A stretch of DNA of 64,000 nucleotides from assembly GCA_051867975.1 (NCBI GenBank), contig JBJDZM010000002.1, forward strand, positions 3,307 through 67,306, in the 5' to 3' direction. Below, in pieces: positions 2,332 through 49,369 of this stretch. The DNA comes from Eubacteriales bacterium. GTDB lineage: Bacteria > Bacillota > Clostridia > Oscillospirales > CAG-272. The notes beneath the pieces were generated by a model, which did not search any database, was not told where the DNA came from, and was given only the letters and a program-made list of their open reading frames with translations. The position numbers and the translations under genes are program-made. Every line of letters starts with the position of its first letter. Within the stretch, counting starts at the first letter, position 1.

Positions 2332-3852
2332 TTAGTTTCTTGTGTTGTATCTGCTTATCAGCTCGCTTATATCCTGCGCGGTCACTTCTCCCGATTCGGA
2401 TGAATTGAGTTCATTCAAAAGTTCTTGTGCCACCGCCTCGGCAACCGAATCGGGGACGTCGATGTTATATTCGGATATGTATTTTTGTGCATATGTTGTC
2501 ATCACCGCGACTTTTTCCTCATTTGACCCATAGCCTCGGCTGTTTACCGTTTTAATGGCACTTGCAATGTTTGTCATAAGCGCATTGTAGTTTTCAATTC
2601 CTATTGTTTCAATCGAAATACTGTCTGCGATTGCCGACATGGCTATTGAAGAAACGTTTATTCCGCTCATGTACGGGTTTGCGGCAAGGACTGCGTTGAC
2701 CTTTTCGATTATTCTTGATTCATCGACAAATGCAACAAGCTCGGAATAATTTGAGACATCAACATCTGTGATGTCACTTTCAAGAATAATTGCGTAAAGA
2801 CTTATCAGCGTGTTCAAATTCATATTTATACTCTTCTCATCGGTTTGCGTGCATGCCGTCAGCACCCGGTCAATAGCACCGTCAACCACCGGGTGCACGT
2901 GCGGTTTTGAGAGCCCCATGAATATCTTGCCCTCAAGCCAAGCGTTTGAACATGTAGACAGAACATCCGCGGCAAAATAATGAACTATCTCCACATCCTG
3001 TATGTGGTCACCGAGCGCATAAAGTGCATCAACATCTTCCTTACCGAGAGTCCCGTTGTTTTGGATTGACTGAGATAAAGATGAAAAATCGTCCATAATA
3101 AGCTTTGCTGCATCAAGCTCATTTGAGATATATACCCTGTCATTGTTTACATCTGCACAAGCGCTTGCATGGTACAATTGCTTGCCGCCAAACTGATAGA
3201 AGGTGTTTCCGACAACATCTTTCGTAATGCTATCCGAATTCTTTATTAAATCCGAGATACGTTCGTCCCCTATGGCGTATTTCGACAATATGCCGGGCGA
3301 TGATGCCTCTGCAATGTTGGCGATCTTTACGGCGGTTTCGACGGTTCCCATAAGCGGAGATATCGCAAGCATGCATATCATGAATGAACTGAGTCCTCCG
3401 ATGACGCCTGATATAACCTTTTCGTATTTTCTGTACCATGATTCCTTTTCTTTTGCGTATCCGGGATCACTGCTGTTTTTCTTGATTATCGTTCTGCATG
3501 CTAAATTTATGACCATGCGACATAGTCTCCTGAATACGAAGAACATAATAACGAACAACAGCGTATTGAGCAATGCCGTGCATGCTATGATCAAAACCGT
3601 ACCGATGGACGGTAACTGTTTTGTCATGGAAATATAAGTCGGATTGTTTTCCGCAATCGCCGAGAAAACAGCGGTCACTATCGTTCCGGAGATTGCAGGT
3701 GAGATAACGATTGACAGTATTATGCTTATGATGCTTGAGCCGAAAGCCAAGAGCGATTTGTTGAGTCCCCTGTTGATATATCGGTATATTTCAATCGCAG
3801 TAATTGCTATGAAAAATATAATCAGTCCAATTGACAGCAATGAAAATGACAT
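2332..3852 (-). CDS. CvpA-like membrane protein with a large C-terminal soluble domain
   Basis: ORF 2332-3891. I prefer the start at M14 (MSFSLLSIGLIIFF...), which has GAAAGGA upstream. The N-terminal ~120 aa form four hydrophobic helices like the colicin V production (CvpA) family. The remaining ~380 aa are unrecognised. Confidence 0.5.
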   Translation of the reverse strand: MSFSLLSIGLIIFFIAITAIEIYRYINRGLNKSLLAFGSSIISIILSIVISPAISGTIVTAVFSAIAENNPTYISMTKQLPSIGTVLIIACTALLNTLLFVIMFFVFRRLCRMVINLACRTIIKKNSSDPGYAKEKESWYRKYEKVISGVIGGLSSFMICMLAISPLMGTVETAVKIANIAEASSPGILSKYAIGDERISDLIKNSDSITKDVVGNTFYQFGGKQLYHASACADVNNDRVYISNELDAAKLIMDDFSSLSQSIQNNGTLGKEDVDALYALGDHIQDVEIVHYFAADVLSTCSNAWLEGKIFMGLSKPHVHPVVDGAIDRVLTACTQTDEKSINMNLNTLISLYAIILESDITDVDVSNYSELVAFVDESRIIEKVNAVLAANPYMSGINVSSIAMSAIADSISIETIGIENYNALMTNIASAIKTVNSRGYGSNEEKVAVMTTYAQKYISEYNIDVPDSVAEAVAQELLNELNSSESGEVTAQDISELISRYNTRN

Positions 3853-9336: not shown

Positions 9337-9691
9337 TTTTTTCTCCTTTCTTTTCTGGCGATACGTTATTTTACCATATTTCCACTAACCTCTTCAACCC
9401 TCAAAATATTCCTATGAAGGAAATATATAGCAAAAAAGGTGCAAAACACGCCTTTTATGCATTGATTTTCCTTTATTTACATATTTTACATACATTTACA
9501 ATGCAAAAAATATGAAACGAAACTCAAAATAATATTGACACTTCAAGTTTTGCATTTTCTAATTCTTCTTTTAATAATAAAACGGTGAAGCCATGAAAAC
9601 TATAAAATATATTGCTCGCCGCGCACTTCCGCTTTTTCGATGGAAACGATGCCGTGTTCACCCCTTAGCGTTGGCGTGAGGCGAAATAATC

Positions 9692-9754
9692 GGGGAGAGG
9701 ACATTTTTCATAAGTCGCTCTCCCCTAAATCTACATACTCAAAAACTTTTAATA
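9692..9754 (+). repeat. Short copy of the hairpin + AAAAACTTTTAATA intergenic motif
   Basis: GGGGAGAGG...CTCTCCCC hairpin, a pyrimidine-rich spacer, then AAAAACTTTTAATA. The same architecture occurs at 11413-11488, 11755-11813 (inverted) and 48281-48340. Confidence 0.6.
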
Positions 9755-9760
9755 AAAGTG

Positions 9761-9789: not shown

Positions 9790-9795
9790 CATCTA

Positions 9796-10055
9796 AACGC
9801 TATGACCGAAAGAAGTAGAAAGCCATACCCAAAAACAGAAAGTTGCCGGTTGATGAGAGGCGCATGACGGCGGTTTTCAAATACATTCGCGAGCGTTGCC
9901 CCCGAAGGAGTGCGAGTAGGCGGCAACGGGTTCGACCGTTATATCGACGGGACTTTATGAGTCTTTAAGGTGTTTGAAGCGATTTAGACACGAAACAAGG
10001 TGGTACCGCGGAGAAATTCGTCCTTGCTCATTTTGGGCAAGGACTTTATTTTTTG
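9796..10055 (+). promoter_or_regulatory. T-box riboswitch leader (tyrosine specifier) with intrinsic terminator
   Basis: Conserved T-box sequence AACAAGGTGGTACCGCGG (9994-10011). Candidate specifier UAC followed by A at 9882-9885. Terminator GTCCTTGC...GCAAGGAC plus T-run (10020-10055). Located directly upstream of tyrS. Confidence 0.85.
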
Positions 10056-10176: not shown

Positions 10177-11397
10177 ATGAAAATTTACGAAGAACTCGTC
10201 GCGCGCGGGCTTATCGCGCAGGTGACAAACGAAGAAGAAATCAGAAATATGATCAACGAGGGCAAAGCGACCTTCTACATCGGCTTTGACCCAACCGCCG
10301 ACTCGCTTCACGTCGGTCACTTCATGGCACTCTGTCTTATGAAGAGACTTCAAATGGCAGGCAATAAGCCCGTCGTGCTTATCGGCGGCGGTACTGCCAT
10401 GGTCGGAGACCCCTCGGGGCGAACCGACATGAGACAGATGATGACTGCCGAGACGATTGCGCATAACTGCAACTGCTTCAAAAAGCAGATGGAAAGATTC
10501 ATCGACTTCGGTGAGGGCAAGGCAATTATGGTCAACAACGCCGATTGGTTGCTCGGACTCAACTACGTCGACGTTCTCCGCGACGTCGGAGCATGCTTCT
10601 CGGTAAACCGTATGCTCACCGCCGAATGTTACAAGCAGAGAATGGAAAAAGGCCTTTCCTTCCTTGAATTTAACTACATGATAATGCAGTCATACGACTT
10701 CTATCACCTCTTTAAGGAATACGGCTGTAATATGCAGTTCGGCGGCGATGACCAGTGGTCGAATATGCTCGGCGGCACCGAGCTTATCCGCCGTAAGCTC
10801 GGCAAGGACGCGCATGCCATGACCATCACCCTGCTGCTCAACTCCGAGGGCAAGAAGATGGGCAAGACCGCTTCGGGCGCAGTCTGGCTCGACCCCGAAA
10901 AAACCTCTCCCTACGATTTCTACCAATATTGGAGAAACGTCGCCGATGCCGACGTACTCAAATGTATCCGTATGCTGACCTTCCTTCCCCTCGAAGAGAT
11001 CAACGCCATGGATTCATGGGAAGGCGCAAAACTTAACACCGCCAAAGAAATTCTCGCATACGAGCTCACAAAACTCGTCCACGGCGAGGAAGAGGCAAAT
11101 AAAGCCCAAGCCCAGGCAAAAGCCCTGTTCGGCGCAGGCGGCGAAGCCGATGCCCCGACAGCGCAAATGCTCGACGAGGATTTCTACATCGAAGATAAAA
11201 CCGATATTCTCACAATGCTCGTCCGCTCCGGACTCTGTAAATCCAAATCCGAAGCCCGCCAGGCAGTGCAGCAGGGCGGCGTCTCGGTCGACGGCGAGAA
11301 AATCACCGATATCAAAACCTTCTACTCAAAATCCGACCTTTCGGACGGCAAACTCCTCCGCAAGGGCAAGAAGACTTATATGAAAGTTGTTTTTTAA
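10177..11397 (+). CDS. tyrS: Tyrosine--tRNA ligase
   Basis: HVGH (HIGH) and KMGKT (KMSKS) class I motifs, a C-terminal S4-like domain, and a T-box leader upstream. Confidence 0.95.
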
Positions 11398-11412
11398 GGG
11401 ATGGTGATTGCA

Positions 11413-11813
11413 GGGGGAGAGGGTGCCTTTTTGAAAAAAGGGCACCCTCTCCCCCTGCACCCCCTCTCCCTTCAAAAACTTTCAATAAATGGGCTGGTTT
11501 GTAAACAAAGTTTCTCTGCAAAACCGCAGGCTAATCTAACTTCAACTTGGAGAAACATCGACATCAAATGTCCTTCATCGGTTGGGTTTAACACGTCCCC
11601 AGCGCGAAAAACAATTGAAAAGGGACTCGGACTCCTCGCACAGCGAGGAGCGGTTTGCACCAAATTGACTTTGAGCAAGTTTAGCATTGCGGTGCATGTA
11701 GTGAGGGATTTTTCCGAAGGGAAAATCCTACGCCACCGCGATAAGGACCCAAAATATTGAAAGTTTTTGAAGAGGGGTATGGGGAGAAAACTTTTTTCAA
11801 AAAGTTTCTCCCC
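11413..11813 (-). repeat. Long copy 1 of a structured intergenic element, flanked by inverted hairpin + AAAAACTTTCAATA ends
   Basis: Fills the convergent tyrS/sigF spacer. Its reverse complement aligns block-wise with 48281-48590. Shared blocks include the head palindrome, ATGCACCG, TCAATTTGGTGCAAACCGCTCC-hairpin-GGAGTCCGAGTC, TTAAACCCA, CAAGTnGAAGT and ACTTTGTTTA. Palindrome ends lie at 11413-11488 (+) and 11755-11813 (-). Confidence 0.7.
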
Positions 11814-11834
11814 AAATCCATATCACAGTCTAAC

Positions 11835-12608
11835 TTACGCCAACTCACCTCTCAAAAAAGACATAATCTTCTTTTCCTCGCGAGAGACTTTAACCTGGGA
11901 GAGACCAAGTCTTGCGGCGACCTGTTGCTGTGTCATATCGCGGTAGTAGCGCAAGAGGACGATTTTCCGCCACTCGGGCGGCATTTTTTTTATTGCCTCT
12001 GCGAGGGACAGGCGGTCGGCGAGATTTTCAAATTCATCTGCCGACTCGCGGTCGGGAATTACGGAATCGAGGGTTTTTGAGTCCTCGCCGAAGACGTTGT
12101 CGGAGAGCGAGGTGACGGGAGACACGGCATCAACGGCTATTGCCGCTTCTTCAACGCTCACGCCTGCATACGCCGCCAGCTCGCTGATTCCCGCCTCTCT
12201 GCCTTCCTCGGTCATAATGCGGTTTTTCTCACGCATTATGGTAATTCCTATCTTTTTATAGCCTCGGCTTACGCGAATAAGCCCGTCGTCGCGCAAATGC
12301 CTGCGTATCTCGCCTACAATGAGCGGCACGGCATAGGTTGAAAAAGCGGTTCCGCGTTCAACCTGAAAGCTGTTTATAGCCTTCAGCATACCAATCGTTC
12401 CAATCTGCATCAGGTCCTCAAATTCGGTGCCTCGGTCACGGAATTTCAGCGCAAGACTCTTGACAAGCGCGGTGTTTTCGATTATAAGCGTTTCGGTTGC
12501 GGATTCGTCTCCGCTCTGCGCACGCAAAATCAGCTCGCGGTTGCGCAAATATCTTTCGTCGTGAATCTCCTGCGTGTTGTCAAGATTATTTTTGTTTTCG
12601 GTATCCAT
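11835..12608 (-). CDS. sigF: RNA polymerase sporulation sigma factor SigF
   Basis: Sigma-70 regions 2-4 (DLMQIGTIGMLKAINSF, YAVPLIVGEIRRHLRD, QQQVAARLGLSQVKVSREEKK). Third gene after spoIIAA and spoIIAB. Confidence 0.9.
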   Translation of the reverse strand: MDTENKNNLDNTQEIHDERYLRNRELILRAQSGDESATETLIIENTALVKSLALKFRDRGTEFEDLMQIGTIGMLKAINSFQVERGTAFSTYAVPLIVGEIRRHLRDDGLIRVSRGYKKIGITIMREKNRIMTEEGREAGISELAAYAGVSVEEAAIAVDAVSPVTSLSDNVFGEDSKTLDSVIPDRESADEFENLADRLSLAEAIKKMPPEWRKIVLLRYYRDMTQQQVAARLGLSQVKVSREEKKIMSFLRGELA

Positions 12609-12632: not shown

Positions 12633-13091
12633 TTATGTATCTCTGTCCTTGAATACCTTATACATCACAATCTTCGTACCGCCCTCAAGACGCGAGGAGA
12701 CAGTCATCTTATCGGTAAAGCTCTCCATGACGGTAAAGCCCATTCCGCTCCGCTCGCCTGCCGCATCGGTTGTAAAAAGCGGCTGACGGGCCTCTTTTAT
12801 GTCCTCGATTCCACAGCCCTTGTCGCGTATCTCAATCTTTGCCACTCTGCCTTCAAGGAGCGAGACGGTTATGTAAATCAGTCCGTCCGAATGGCGGTAG
12901 GCGTGAACTATGCAGTTCGTTACCGCCTCGCTGACCGCGCATTTTATGTCTGCAAGCTCGATTGCCGAGGGGTCAAGCTGTGCGCAGAACGCCGCAACCG
13001 CCGCGCGTGCCATTCCCTCGTTTGCTGACAGCGCAGGGAGCTTTAATTGCATTTTGTTTATCACTTTTCCCGATATTTTTGCCTTTTTCAT
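12633..13091 (-). CDS. spoIIAB: Anti-sigma F factor (serine kinase) SpoIIAB
   Basis: HATPase_c-type motifs AVSEAVTNCIVHAY, DKGCGIEDI and ERSGMGFTVM. ATGA overlap with spoIIAA. Confidence 0.9.
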   Translation of the reverse strand: MKKAKISGKVINKMQLKLPALSANEGMARAAVAAFCAQLDPSAIELADIKCAVSEAVTNCIVHAYRHSDGLIYITVSLLEGRVAKIEIRDKGCGIEDIKEARQPLFTTDAAGERSGMGFTVMESFTDKMTVSSRLEGGTKIVMYKVFKDRDT

Positions 13092-46868: not shown

Positions 46869-48260
46869 ATGAATCTCCTTGACACGATCGCCGCCATAAG
46901 TACGCCTTACGGTAAGGGCGGTATTGCAGTGATAAGAATTTCAGGCTCGGATGCCGTCTCGATTGCCGAAAAAGTCTTTATCCCAAAAAATAAAAATCCG
47001 CTTTCATCCTTTGAGAGCAACCACGCTGTATACGGCTCGATTCTCTCAAATAAGAACGGTAAAAAAACTGAAATTGATGACGGTATAGCCGTAGTATTTC
47101 GCGCGCCTGCATCGTTTACGGGTGAGGATACGGTTGAGATATCCTGCCACGGCGGAGTCCTCCTTACGCAAAGGGTGCTTGAAGCCGTGCTTGCCTCCGG
47201 TGCGAGAGCGGCGACCGCCGGCGAGTTTACCCGACGCGCCTTCATAAACGGCAAAATGACGCTCACAAGTGCCGAATCTCTCGGAGAATTGCTCTCCGCT
47301 TCGACCGATGAGCAGATAAGTCTTGCGCGCTCGGGACTCTCGGGAAGACTGTCAAGCGAAATATCTCTGATCTACAATTCGCTTTGTGACATTTTGGCGG
47401 CAATATACGCACACATCGACTACCCCGACGAGGATCTTGCCGACATCAGCCGCGACGAAATGCTTAAGGTTGCGGAAAAAAATCTTTCAAAACTTCGTCA
47501 CCTCGCCGCGACCTATACAACGGGACATGCCGTCGGAGAAGGAATTGCCACGGCAATTGTCGGCAGGACAAACGCAGGAAAGAGTACGCTTTATAACCTG
47601 ATAGTCGGCAGAGATGCCGCTATCGTGACAGATATTGAAGGCACTACCCGTGATATTTTGACCGAGTCGGCAAAACTCGGCAAGGTAACCTTGCGCCTGT
47701 CCGACACCGCAGGTATTCGCTGCACCTCGGACAAGGTCGAATCTATCGGAATTGAGCGCGCGAGGCGCGAAGCGGAGTCCGCCGAGCTGATTTTAGCCGT
47801 ATTTGACGGCAGCCGAGCGCCCGACAGTGATGATGTCGACTTCTGCAACTACCTCGAAACACTCAGCGGAATTAAAATCGCTATAATCAACAAGAGCGAC
47901 CTCAAAACAGTACCCGAAATGCAGAGATTAGTCGAAAAATTCGACTTGTCTATTCCCTTCTCCGCCGAAACAGGCAAAGGCTTTGATGTCCTCTCTTCTG
48001 CGGTCGAAAAAATATACATCGACAACGACCTCGATATGGGGCAGAGCGCAATCATCGCAAATGCCCGTCAAAACGCGGCAATCATTCGCACTATCGATAC
48101 CCTTTCGGACGCAATTTTCTCTATCCGCCAAGAACTTCCCCTTGAGGTCTGCTGCGTTGAGGTCGAAAACGCCCTCTCCGCACTCGGCGAGCTTGACGGA
48201 AGAACCGTTTCCGATGACATTATCTCAAAAATTTTCGCAAATTTCTGCGTTGGAAAATAG
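46869..48260 (+). CDS. mnmE: tRNA modification GTPase MnmE
   Basis: DTIAAISTP.GKGGIAVIRISG, G-domain motifs GRTNAGKSTL and DTAGIR, C-terminal FCVGK. Confidence 0.95.
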   Translation: MNLLDTIAAISTPYGKGGIAVIRISGSDAVSIAEKVFIPKNKNPLSSFESNHAVYGSILSNKNGKKTEIDDGIAVVFRAPASFTGEDTVEISCHGGVLLTQRVLEAVLASGARAATAGEFTRRAFINGKMTLTSAESLGELLSASTDEQISLARSGLSGRLSSEISLIYNSLCDILAAIYAHIDYPDEDLADISRDEMLKVAEKNLSKLRHLAATYTTGHAVGEGIATAIVGRTNAGKSTLYNLIVGRDAAIVTDIEGTTRDILTESAKLGKVTLRLSDTAGIRCTSDKVESIGIERARREAESAELILAVFDGSRAPDSDDVDFCNYLETLSGIKIAIINKSDLKTVPEMQRLVEKFDLSIPFSAETGKGFDVLSSAVEKIYIDNDLDMGQSAIIANARQNAAIIRTIDTLSDAIFSIRQELPLEVCCVEVENALSALGELDGRTVSDDIISKIFANFCVGK

Positions 48261-48280
48261 ATAGATTGCGCTATGGATTT

Positions 48281-48590
48281 AGGGAAACCCTTTTTAGAAA
48301 AAAGGGTTTTCCCTATAACCCTTCCCAAAAACTTTTAATATGGGTTTCTAACTAAGGTGAAGTAGACGCAATATGCACCGTGAGGATAAACTGAATCAAA
48401 ATCAATTTGGTGCAAACCGCTCCCTGCAAGCAGGGAGTCCGAGTCACATTTCAAATTCAACCTACTGAGATATTGCGTATTGGAACAGTATTAAACCCAG
48501 CCGAGAAAGAAAAATTCAAGTCGAAGTAATCTTAAGTTGAAAATTGAGTTTGCTGAGAAGGTTTGTGTTAGAACTTTGTTTAACCCATCC
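48281..48590 (+). repeat. Long copy 2 of the structured intergenic element (fills the mnmE-ymdB spacer)
   Basis: Head palindrome AGGGAAACCCTTTTTAGAAAAAAGGGTTTTCCCT plus AAAAACTTTTAATA. Core TCAATTTGGTGCAAACCGCTCCCTGCAAGCAGGGAGTCCGAGTC (48402-48445). Collinear with the reverse complement of 11413-11813. Confidence 0.7.
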
Positions 48591-48601
48591 GAGGAGGAAC
48601 A

Positions 48602-49369
48602 ATGAAAATACTTGCAATTGGCGACATTGTGGGAACACGCGCCATTAAATATTTAAGAGAAAAGCTCTGGAAGCTTCGAGATGAGAAAAAGATTGACTTT
48701 GTAATTGCAAACGGGGAAAATGCGACCGAAATACACGGGCTATCCGCCGCCGACGCGCAGGCTATCCTCGACTGTGGCGTGGATTTTATAACGCTCGGAA
48801 ATCACACGTGGAATAAACGTGATATATACGCCTTTTTGGACTTAAACGGCGAGTGCATAATCCGCCCTGCAAACTACCCCGGCAGTGCTCCGGGCTACGG
48901 CTATTCAATAGTGGATATACAAGGCTACCGCACGCTTATTATGAATGTCCTCGGTCAGGTGTTTTTGGAGCCGGTCGGGGATCCGTTTGAAGCGGTTGAG
49001 TACATTTTGGCGCGTGAAGAAGGCAATTTTGACCTCTCAATACTTGATATTCACGCCGAGGCAACGAGCGAAAAATATGCAGTAGCGCATGTTTTCGACG
49101 GCAAAATCAACATGATCTTCGGCACTCACACCCATGTCCCGACTGCCGACACACAAATACTTCCGGGCGGCACTGCATACGTCACCGACCTCGGGATGAC
49201 GGGACCTCGAAACGGCGTACTCGGGGTCGATGCAGAAGCAACGATAACCAAAATGAGAATGCATATGCCCACCCGTTTCACGGTCGCGGACGGAGAAATC
49301 AGCGCCGACGCGATAATATTTGAGCTTGACGGCGACAAGGTGACAAGAATTGAAAGGATCGTTTTCTGA
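48602..49369 (+). CDS. ymdB: TIGR00282-type metallophosphoesterase (YmdB family)
   Basis: MKILAIGDIVG, NGENAT, GNHTWN, HAEATSEK and GTHTHV motifs. GAGGAGG RBS. Confidence 0.9.
   Translation: MKILAIGDIVGTRAIKYLREKLWKLRDEKKIDFVIANGENATEIHGLSAADAQAILDCGVDFITLGNHTWNKRDIYAFLDLNGECIIRPANYPGSAPGYGYSIVDIQGYRTLIMNVLGQVFLEPVGDPFEAVEYILAREEGNFDLSILDIHAEATSEKYAVAHVFDGKINMIFGTHTHVPTADTQILPGGTAYVTDLGMTGPRNGVLGVDAEATITKMRMHMPTRFTVADGEISADAIIFELDGDKVTRIERIVF

Follow-up and report, generated by a model that had tools for sequence, protein, structure and literature searches.

The BOX elements of Streptococcus pneumoniae (boxA-boxB-boxC) are modular, structured and co-transcribed repeats, restricted to a group of species and less numerous in the nearest relatives, and are read as parasitic (PMC3049150). 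The TMECO (boxC) triplex motif of Escherichia coli and other bacteria is 37 nt long, nearly invariant and unbiased in strand and position with regard to genes; it forms a class II purine motif in vitro (PMC4666352). Here we describe a family of non-coding hairpin repeats found through two spacers of a 64,000-nt window (positions 3,307 to 67,306 of contig JBJDZM010000002.1, assembly GCA_051867975.1, Eubacteriales bacterium). Copy 1 lies between sigF and tyrS and is read on the minus strand, and copy 2 lies between mnmE and ymdB on the plus strand. We consider it probable that both stretches belong to a genus-restricted family of modular, nested, selfish or semi-selfish repeats, of the kind represented by repetitive extragenic palindromes (REP), bacterial interspersed mosaic elements (BIME), BOX and MITE (miniature inverted-repeat transposable elements). 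This family is present in many copies, is built of modules that nest in one another and occupies sites that are empty in relatives; its helices are maintained by compensatory changes, and its core module combines strand-specific wobble pairs with an orientation that depends on the lineage. While this general kind is known, the family itself seems confined to one genus and is apparently undescribed, as we found no description in the literature of such repeats in Oscillospiraceae.

The source genome (G000) is a metagenome-assembled genome (MAG) of 1.80 Mb in 120 contigs, with 47% G+C and 89.9% completeness; other G-numbers below designate congeners, C-numbers contigs and L-numbers extracted loci. 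A BLAST search of copy 2 against G000 returned 78 pieces, falling in three blocks of the query: the head (H), the core (M) and the tail (T). Each block was iterated in nhmmer against G000, which yielded 111 H, 59 M and 64 T matches grouped in 107 clusters. These clusters sum to ~17.5 kb, i.e. ~1% of the assembly, and are extragenic, with a mean overlap of 0.11 with open reading frames (ORFs). The original prediction had described a discrete element of ~300 nt in two long copies and had allowed that no others might exist. Many exist, and what appeared as one element is a mosaic of H, M and T dispersed over ~107 loci. The clusters were arranged as H-T (~27), H alone (~26), M alone (21), T alone (7), H-M-T (7, both window copies included) and M-H-T (5), and several consisted of tandem M arrays. 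Contig ends lay within 300 nt of a cluster in 20 of 240 cases, versus 6.6 expected; clusters are thus enriched at contig breaks and the true copy number is therefore higher. The family consists of modular, nested non-coding hairpin repeats, each window copy being a composite organized as H-(linker hairpin)-M-T(-T'). T is the looser, tail module. A GTAG-headed, REP-like hairpin (CGTAGGGCGGGGG...CTCCCGCC; CGTAGGGCGGGGGYTTRTCTCCCGCCGC) recurs downstream of T modules, at C12, C42, C77:10004, C104 and other places; it is a repeat different from H, M and T, and no RAYT gene was found in the assembly.

The two window copies aligned in MAFFT over ~330 columns with 74% column identity and with the listed motifs in the same order, in agreement with the collinearity noticed at the outset. 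Copy 1 (minus strand, 11837-11489) runs from the sigF stop codon through a long hairpin with an A/T-rich top, a C-rich tail, CAAAAACTTTCAATA, the linker hairpin and the 78-nt core to the tail region; copy 2 (plus strand, 48258-48601) repeats this order from the mnmE stop codon up to the ymdB ribosome-binding site. The features are as follows.

11729..11837, minus strand: module H of sigF (copy 1); sigF stop TAA at 11837-11835, its last base overlapped by the start of the element, AGTTAGACTGTG
~11814-11780, minus strand: hairpin of this H, TGGGGAGAAACTTTTT-GAA-AAAAGTTTTCTCCCCA
~11779-11755, minus strand: mirror tail of this H, ACCCCTCTTCAAAAACTTTCAATA, followed by the 3' extension GGGTCCTTATCGCGGTGGCG
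11700..11728, minus strand: linker hairpin (B type), GGATTTTCCC-TTC-GGAAAAATCC
11622..11699, minus strand (G000:C2:14928-15005): module M, with helix P1 TGCACCG...TGGTGCA and unpaired motifs CGCAAUG (family consensus CGUGARG), AUUUG, AAACC and CCGAGU
~11651-11631, minus strand: helix P2 of this M, GCTCCTCGC-TGT-GCGAGGAGT
11489..11621, minus strand: module T, GTGTTAAACCCAACCGATGAAGG ... CAAGTTGAAGT, together with a second, partial T, ACTTTGTTTACAAACCAGCCC
11398..11488, plus strand: H element of the convergent tyrS (stop codon 11395-11397), with hairpin TGCAGGGGGAGAGGGTGCC...GGCACCCTCTCCCCCTGCA at 11409-11459
11460-11488, plus strand: tail of the tyrS H, CCCCCTCTCCC-TTCAAAAACTTTCAATAA, mirroring arm GGGGGAGAGGG at 11/11 positions
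48258..48370, plus strand: module H of mnmE (copy 2); stop TAG at 48258-48260 overlaps the start of the element, (T)AGATAGATTGCG
48280-48315, plus strand: hairpin of this H, TAGGGAAACCCTTTTT-AGAA-AAAAGGGTTTTCCCTA
48316-48340, plus strand: tail of this H, TAACCCTTCCCAAAAACTTTTAATA, followed by the A-type extension GGGTTTCTAACTAAGGTGAAGTAGACGC
48371..48447, plus strand (G000:C2:51677-51753): module M, with helix P1 TGCACCG...TGGTGCA
48419-48438, plus strand: helix P2 of this M, GCTCCCTGC-AA-GCAGGGAGT, followed by CCGAGTC
48448..48601, plus strand: module T (48456-48538) and partial second T (48551-48601)

The inverted second head that had been reported at 11413-11488 is really present; it is the H hairpin of tyrS itself and not a terminal inverted repeat of copy 1, so that the MITE-like appearance of this copy was an illusion created by its neighbour. 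The tyrS and sigF H elements belong to different H subtypes, and loci L125 and L139 of relatives likewise carry one H after sigF and another after tyrS. The B-type linker hairpin covaries in other copies (TTGAAATTTGC/GCAAATTTCAA and CTGATTTTCGC/GCGAAAATCAG). The absence of coding potential and of annotation was confirmed: ORFs over copy 1 had no Pfam match, and among Rfam 15 models at the gathering threshold only the tyrS T-box (9793-10028) passed in the window, with nothing at either copy, where permissive scans gave only chance microRNA-type hairpin matches. A terminator scan of 11300-11900 found no terminator-like site, leaving sigF and tyrS without a canonical terminator, and a scan of 48200-48650 found only an unrelated site inside mnmE on the other strand. 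Since the scanned spacer between mnmE and ymdB contains neither a promoter- nor a terminator-like site, copy 2 is probably transcribed as intercistronic RNA. Its second T (48551-48601) ends in CCGAG, fused to the native-looking GAGGAGG that forms the ymdB ribosome-binding site (GAGGAGGAACA-ATG, with the ATG at 48602). Upstream of this ribosome-binding site lies a segment similar to the conserved AACCCAGCCGAGNNAG of T; T may carry a decayed ribosome-binding site.

Comparison with congeners revealed the empty sites that the original prediction had proposed to look for. The mnmE-ymdB spacer measures 341 nt in G000 versus 13-65 nt in ~25 of 29 congeners (TAA GAGGAAACAAAAAGC ATG in G044, for example); at the same spot G018 and G024 hold a different H-type insert and G006 another repeat. 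Similarly, the spacers at C77:4617 and C77:7267 are 265 and 370 nt long in G000, where they contain H-T, versus 25-46 nt in G018, G044 and G049. Judged from these orthologous spacers, the copies are insertions. The spacer orthologous to C77:7208-7583 also occurs with unrelated inserts of 530-580 nt, made of a small ORF within long inverted repeats (L264 in G049:C19, L262 in G018:C24), and as a 25-nt empty spacer in G044; this place immediately behind a stop codon has the appearance of a hot spot for insertions. Of 25 congeners, at least 13 have an H behind sigF, whose stems differ and covary, and neither M nor T was seen there in any of them. In G018 (L124, on G018:C7) the sigF-tyrS spacer carries a nested palindrome of ~190 nt (GGGGACGCGAACAATCCCTCAG...CTGAGGGATTGTTCGCCTCCCC) in place of the H hairpin.

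The modules are inserted not only in spacers, they are also inserted in one another. In H-M-T composites M takes the place of the 5' half of the linker hairpin; in G000 and in orthologous loci of G044 and G049 it is nested in the tops of H hairpins; and behind tRNA-Lys it is nested in the P1 loop of another M, within a 230-nt unit repeated 2.3 times. This last array (G000:C105:18870-19215, L223) lies directly downstream of tRNA-Lys(CUU), with 97% identity between units, and each unit contains, besides M-in-M, a third hairpin module (AATGCACGCC...GGCGTGCAT + ATGGGTTCA...TGAACCCAT). M and H have variable 5' flanks, and no fixed flank that could represent an insertion target for M was found by eye.

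Module M is a unit of 78 nt that inserts on its own. In the consensus that RNAalifold gave for 44 distinct G000 copies, it folds into two helices, P1 (7 pairs) and P2 (9 pairs). Ten of the 16 pairs were changed on both sides and pairing remained at 98.4%. The covariation score was 0.387, compared to 0.136 ± 0.011 in shuffled controls, with none of the 500 shuffles reaching the observed value, and pairing fell to 31-49% when the 3' partner was shifted by 1-3 columns. The core hairpin arms of the window copies (copy 1, CTCCTCG/CGAGGAG; copy 2, CTCCCTG/CAGGGAG) differ by two compensatory changes per arm and are the two commonest alleles among these 44 copies. The argument initially drawn from them, that fully compensatory changes reflect selection on structure, therefore holds in a wider alignment, where the paired substitutions are also backed by 23 distinct copies from other species (98.9% paired, in an alignment fitted to the model, which favours this figure). 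One closing pair was G·U in 40 copies and another in 41, out of 44, and the 23 other copies kept both. On the opposite strand these pairs would be C·A, so the fold of M is strand-specific. The structure under selection may be RNA or single-stranded DNA. Four unpaired motifs are conserved as well (CGUGARG, AUUUG, AAACC and UCCGAGU), and inspection by eye revealed no consistent covariation for pseudoknots or tertiary pairs. Orthologous M copies of G044 and G049 differed only in their loops. A diverged subfamily of G054 and G013 forms an 83-nt unit in four repeats that are 98% identical; it kept the unpaired motifs with an unrelated P2. About 20 sites each in G054 and G013, together with L176 (G054:C3:119427-119757), carry such tandem 83-nt arrays, in which P1 is kept and P2 reads GCAGTTTTGC/GCAAAACTG.

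Such constraints are also what supports a different explanation, namely that M, alone or with H, is a host-functional structured RNA (a cis element of 3' untranslated regions or leaders, a protein-bound small RNA, possibly a catalytic one) whose dispersal is secondary. The covariation in both helices, the two G·U pairs, the motifs retained beside a wholly different P2 and the variation limited to loops between orthologues all speak for it, as does the finding that 36 of 47 M loci have M in sense with one or more neighbouring genes. Further support comes from an M subfamily with P1 = ACACAGC, which starts where transcription is predicted to begin from perfect sigma-70 promoters (TTGACA, 16-17 nt, TGnTATAAT) upstream of tRNA-Ser(GCU), tRNA-Val(GAC) and a SAM-I riboswitch. 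However, the same promoters lack M in 5 relatives for tRNA-Val and in 4 for the SAM-I riboswitch, the -10 box being there ~15-25 nt from the tRNA or aptamer. These promoter-proximal copies are thus recent insertions, and on the same grounds a conserved leader close to promoters (a put/EAR-like antiterminator, a 5' stabiliser or a processing signal) was rejected as the general explanation of M. M is moreover limited to one genus, with 0 to 55 copies among congeners, has no Rfam match and occurs in self-nested and tandem copies. Its orientation is that of H and T in every G000 composite and in G044 and G049, whereas at 8 H-M-T loci of four species (G001, G008, G015 and G018) M lies antisense to H-T and to the gene. 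Such a flip between lineages argues that the strand-specific fold of M has no tie to the host gene's sense transcript. We consider a host-functional M unlikely, though less so than the other alternatives discussed below.

At 3-4 G000 loci, promoter-proximal M is flanked by A/T-rich, -10-like direct repeats of 10-15 nt, with TATGATATAATATAC on both sides at C114 and diverged versions at C6, C81 and C105. They may be target duplications, or else they may mark where a truncated tandem unit begins. Two solo M copies are near-identical, one at G000:C2:69255-69332, ~2 kb past the end of the window, and the other at C114:19385-19462. In both regions the TGATATAAT promoter box occurs two or three times in tandem, and a further repeated unit, ACGCAGAAATCCTTGCTRACGCAAG..., is present; the region on C2, which ends there, could be the leader of an rRNA operon or another multi-promoter leader.

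Module H is a hairpin of 70-110 nt with a purine-rich 5' arm, an A/T-rich top and a C-rich tail, followed by the fixed motif CAAAAACTTTYAA. Its stems vary by subtype and stay paired (e.g. GGGAAACCC, GGGGAGAAAC, GGGGGAAC and GCAGGGGGAGAGGGTGCC); the top always consists of a T-run and an A-run, and no U-tract follows the stem. H is placed very precisely at gene ends. A co-oriented ORF was found near 30 of 39 full-length copies, and in 28 of these 30 (28/39 of the full-length copies) the stop codon ended between -13 and +13 of H position 1. Among cleanly parsed H hairpins, 32 of 42 started 7-108 nt past a co-oriented stop codon, 29 of them within 28 nt. In 8 of the full-length copies the ORF ended inside the element, four times precisely on the TAG contained in its conserved AGTTAG start, so that H sometimes supplies the stop codon of its gene. 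The window contains another H-like hairpin, missed by the H model, at 9690-9760 (G000:C2:~13000-13060; CGGGGAGAGGAC...GTCGCTCTCCCCT with tail motif CAAAAACTTTTAATAA); its position, immediately upstream of the tyrS T-box leader, is presumably the 3' end of the gene before.

The tail of H re-writes its purine-rich 5' arm, with C for G and T or A for A. Across 53 distinct pairs of stem and tail, taken from G000 and relatives, the tail matched its own stem at 0.82, versus 0.71 ± 0.013 for re-paired controls, and none of 300 shuffles reached the observed match; with A or T allowed opposite A the match was 0.88 versus 0.81. One example is GGGGGAGAGGG/CCCCCTCTCCC, behind tyrS in the window; another, GGGGAGAGGAGGGG/CCCCTCTCCTCCCC, comes from a relative. 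The tail motif CAA[AG]AAC[CT]TT[CTA]AA occurred 43 times, compared with ~0.9 expected, nearly always after a gene-end hairpin. Attempts to assign a strand to the H stem gave no decision: 27 distinct stems contained 16 G·T versus 8 A·C mismatches, and folding energies were below those of shuffled sequences on both strands (z = -2.6 and -3.2), which did not separate them.

H might not be mobile at all and instead be the genus's own gene-end signal (a terminator lacking a U-tract, an RNA 3'-end protector or a DNA triplex), evolved in place and homogenised, to which only M and T were added. The recurrence of H after sigF with different covarying stems, the attachment of the tail motif to gene-end hairpins, the tails that track their own stems across species and the convergent sigF/tyrS pair devoid of canonical terminators are all in its favour. 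Nevertheless, near-identical H subtypes (93-97%) stand behind unrelated genes, H was inserted at mnmE-ymdB in a lineage-specific manner in G000 and independently in G018 and G024, and it belongs to composites that are absent from relatives. Canonical terminators, when whole spacers were scanned, were moreover equally frequent in H-bearing and other spacers (10/57 versus 126/675, 17.5% versus 18.7%). We consequently hold an immobile gene-end signal to be quite improbable. A search over 150 nt had suggested that H replaces canonical terminators, with 1 gene end carrying both versus 8.9 expected; this was an artefact of the search window. A plain intrinsic terminator was also rejected, no U-tract directly following the GC-rich stem. 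As for a classical MITE, i.e. a deletion derivative of a DDE insertion sequence (IS) with terminal inverted repeats and target-site duplications, the -10-like direct repeats around promoter-proximal M and the DDE_Tnp_1, rve and IS110-type transposases of the assembly could suggest it, but it is very improbable, as terminal inverted repeats are missing from M, H-T and H-M-T (copy 1 owes its inverted head to the tyrS element), H-T shows no target duplication at clean empty sites, the IS contigs carry no module termini and the direct repeats may be the start of a truncated tandem unit, M arrays holding the same box between their units.

The family is narrowly distributed. BLAST matches were obtained in 14 of 24 sampled congeners and in none of 16 genomes from other families of the order. 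A covariance model of M detected 55 copies in G000, 1-9 copies in each of 13 congeners and ~20 weak, diverged tandem copies in each of two further congeners; it detected no copy in 148 genomes representing 96 other genera of the family. Copy 2 had no blastn match among 50,697 phage records. The exact core pattern had no match in other species, and a looser P2 pattern matched only gut and rumen Clostridia MAGs, apart from chance occurrences. TyrS of the source genome is most similar, with a top identity of 82%, to proteins of uncultured Oscillospiraceae and Eubacteriales gut MAGs.

On the basis of a selfish or semi-selfish repeat family, we propose that the modules would be copied by a trans-acting activity recognising one folded strand, by analogy with the HUH or tyrosine enzymes that act on REP, IS200/IS605 ends and attC. 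New copies would land in A/T-rich or looped-out DNA, such as hairpin tops, -10 boxes and the few bases following a stop codon. Selection would then keep the insertions that spare coding sequences and ribosome-binding sites, that is, in a compact genome, those just behind stop codons. Inserted copies would be co-transcribed as 3'-untranslated or intercistronic RNA, and in copy 2 the hairpins may incidentally affect the stability of RNA 3' ends.

Several observations weigh against this interpretation. A six-frame search with PF01797 detected no Y1/RAYT gene in the ~90%-complete assembly, although control genomes gave matches, and no TnpB (PF07282) match was obtained in the assembly either. IS4-like (DDE_Tnp_1), rve and IS110-type transposases are present, on four short contigs (C76, C83, C86 and C96), which share no ends with H, M or T; a 14-nt match to the tail motif behind the IS110 terminator is their only similarity. 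Terminal inverted repeats are absent from the composites, as is any clear target duplication at clean empty sites (mnmE-ymdB and C77), and at C77:4617 the small hairpin of relatives has disappeared entirely, which is a replacement and not a clean insertion; recombination or gene conversion, instead of transposition, could therefore spread the modules. The unpaired motifs, G·U pairs, unchanged stems of orthologues and frequent sense orientation of M fit a host-useful RNA. Finally, G000 is only ~90% complete and is fragmented, and its gene calls are crude ORF calls. On C86 (G000:C86:1-1694), the IS110-family transposase (PF01548, E = 1.5e-39) is followed by its canonical terminator and then by TGCTTCAAAAACTTTCTCAATTA, close to the H tail motif.

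A bolder version, to which we give as little credence as to a host-functional RNA, is that M is a self-contained nucleic-acid module whose fold is the active part of a novel mode of propagation, for instance one in which an enzyme recognises folded single-stranded DNA, or an RNA-mediated or a self-processing one, that targets hairpin tops and melted -10 boxes; gut Clostridia would then hold, with the triplex-coded H included, a new class of mobile elements that target structures and nest in them.

If the repeats are indeed mobile, uncultured gut and rumen Oscillospiraceae hold an undescribed and very active kind of small repeat. It would reshape gene boundaries by giving stop codons to some genes and by parting operon partners with hundreds of structured bases, and would duplicate -10 boxes before tRNA genes and a riboswitch. 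It would also offer a natural data set on how an element specific for a folded strand spreads without a recognisable transposase, and on whether motifs made of a hairpin and a mirror tail, of triplex type, act at gene ends. In practice, the repeats would break short-read assemblies, and spacers of this type should not be annotated as ORFs, small RNAs or terminators without evidence.

Compared with known systems, H resembles an intrinsic terminator in being a GC-rich hairpin ~10-30 nt from the stop codon and co-oriented with the gene; it differs by the T/A runs of its top and the stem without a U-tract, and canonical terminators are neither depleted nor enriched in H spacers. Correia/NEMIS elements of Neisseria and other MITEs (PMC10969869; PMC3184786) are, like the present family, small, non-autonomous, co-transcribed and located near genes, and they are able to introduce a promoter box or to duplicate one; M copies lie at -10 boxes, flanked by direct repeats. 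In contrast, the present family has no terminal inverted repeats, the ends of M and of H-T composites not being inverted copies of each other, no short TA-type duplication and no cognate IS, and M is made of two independent helices instead of one long inverted-repeat hairpin. IS200/IS605-derived PATE were rejected, as neither PF01797 nor PF07282 gave a match, no fixed 4-5-nt target was found and the 5' flanks of M and H vary. The REP/BIME/REPIN-RAYT systems (PMC2817692) share with this family extragenic hairpins located mostly at gene 3' ends, mosaic clusters, compensatory variation of stems and features of strand-specific recognition; in the alignments, however, H, M and T lack a GT[AG]G head, the modules measure 78-110 nt and not 20-40 nt, and a RAYT gene was not found in the ~90%-complete assembly.

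The likeness to BOX elements, compared by description only, lies in modules of variable number and order, extensive secondary structure, co-transcription with neighbouring genes (probable in the present family), ~100 copies per ~2 Mb and a restricted taxonomic range, no transposase being known for either. The present family differs by its strict placement (~10 nt from a co-oriented stop codon), its nesting of module within module and its mirror, triplex-type tail. To our knowledge, BOX elements have no strict stop-codon placement, nesting or mirror tail. Homology to boxA, boxB or boxC is very unlikely because the family is confined to one genus of Oscillospiraceae. TMECO and H, for their part, are both intergenic, multi-copy motifs at rearrangement-prone loci; in both, two hairpin arms are joined consecutively by a third block obeying the triad rules, and stems are better conserved than loops. 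In H, the sense strand places A or T opposite A-T and C opposite G-C, which corresponds to G·G-C, A·A-T and T·A-T triads on the complement; T or A opposite A-T pairs fits an antiparallel purine motif on the G-rich complementary strand. By its sequence, H thus has the make-up of an intrastrand triplex motif, the triplex itself being predicted, and differs from TMECO by its greater length (70-110 nt), its variable stems and its fixed orientation and position behind stop codons.

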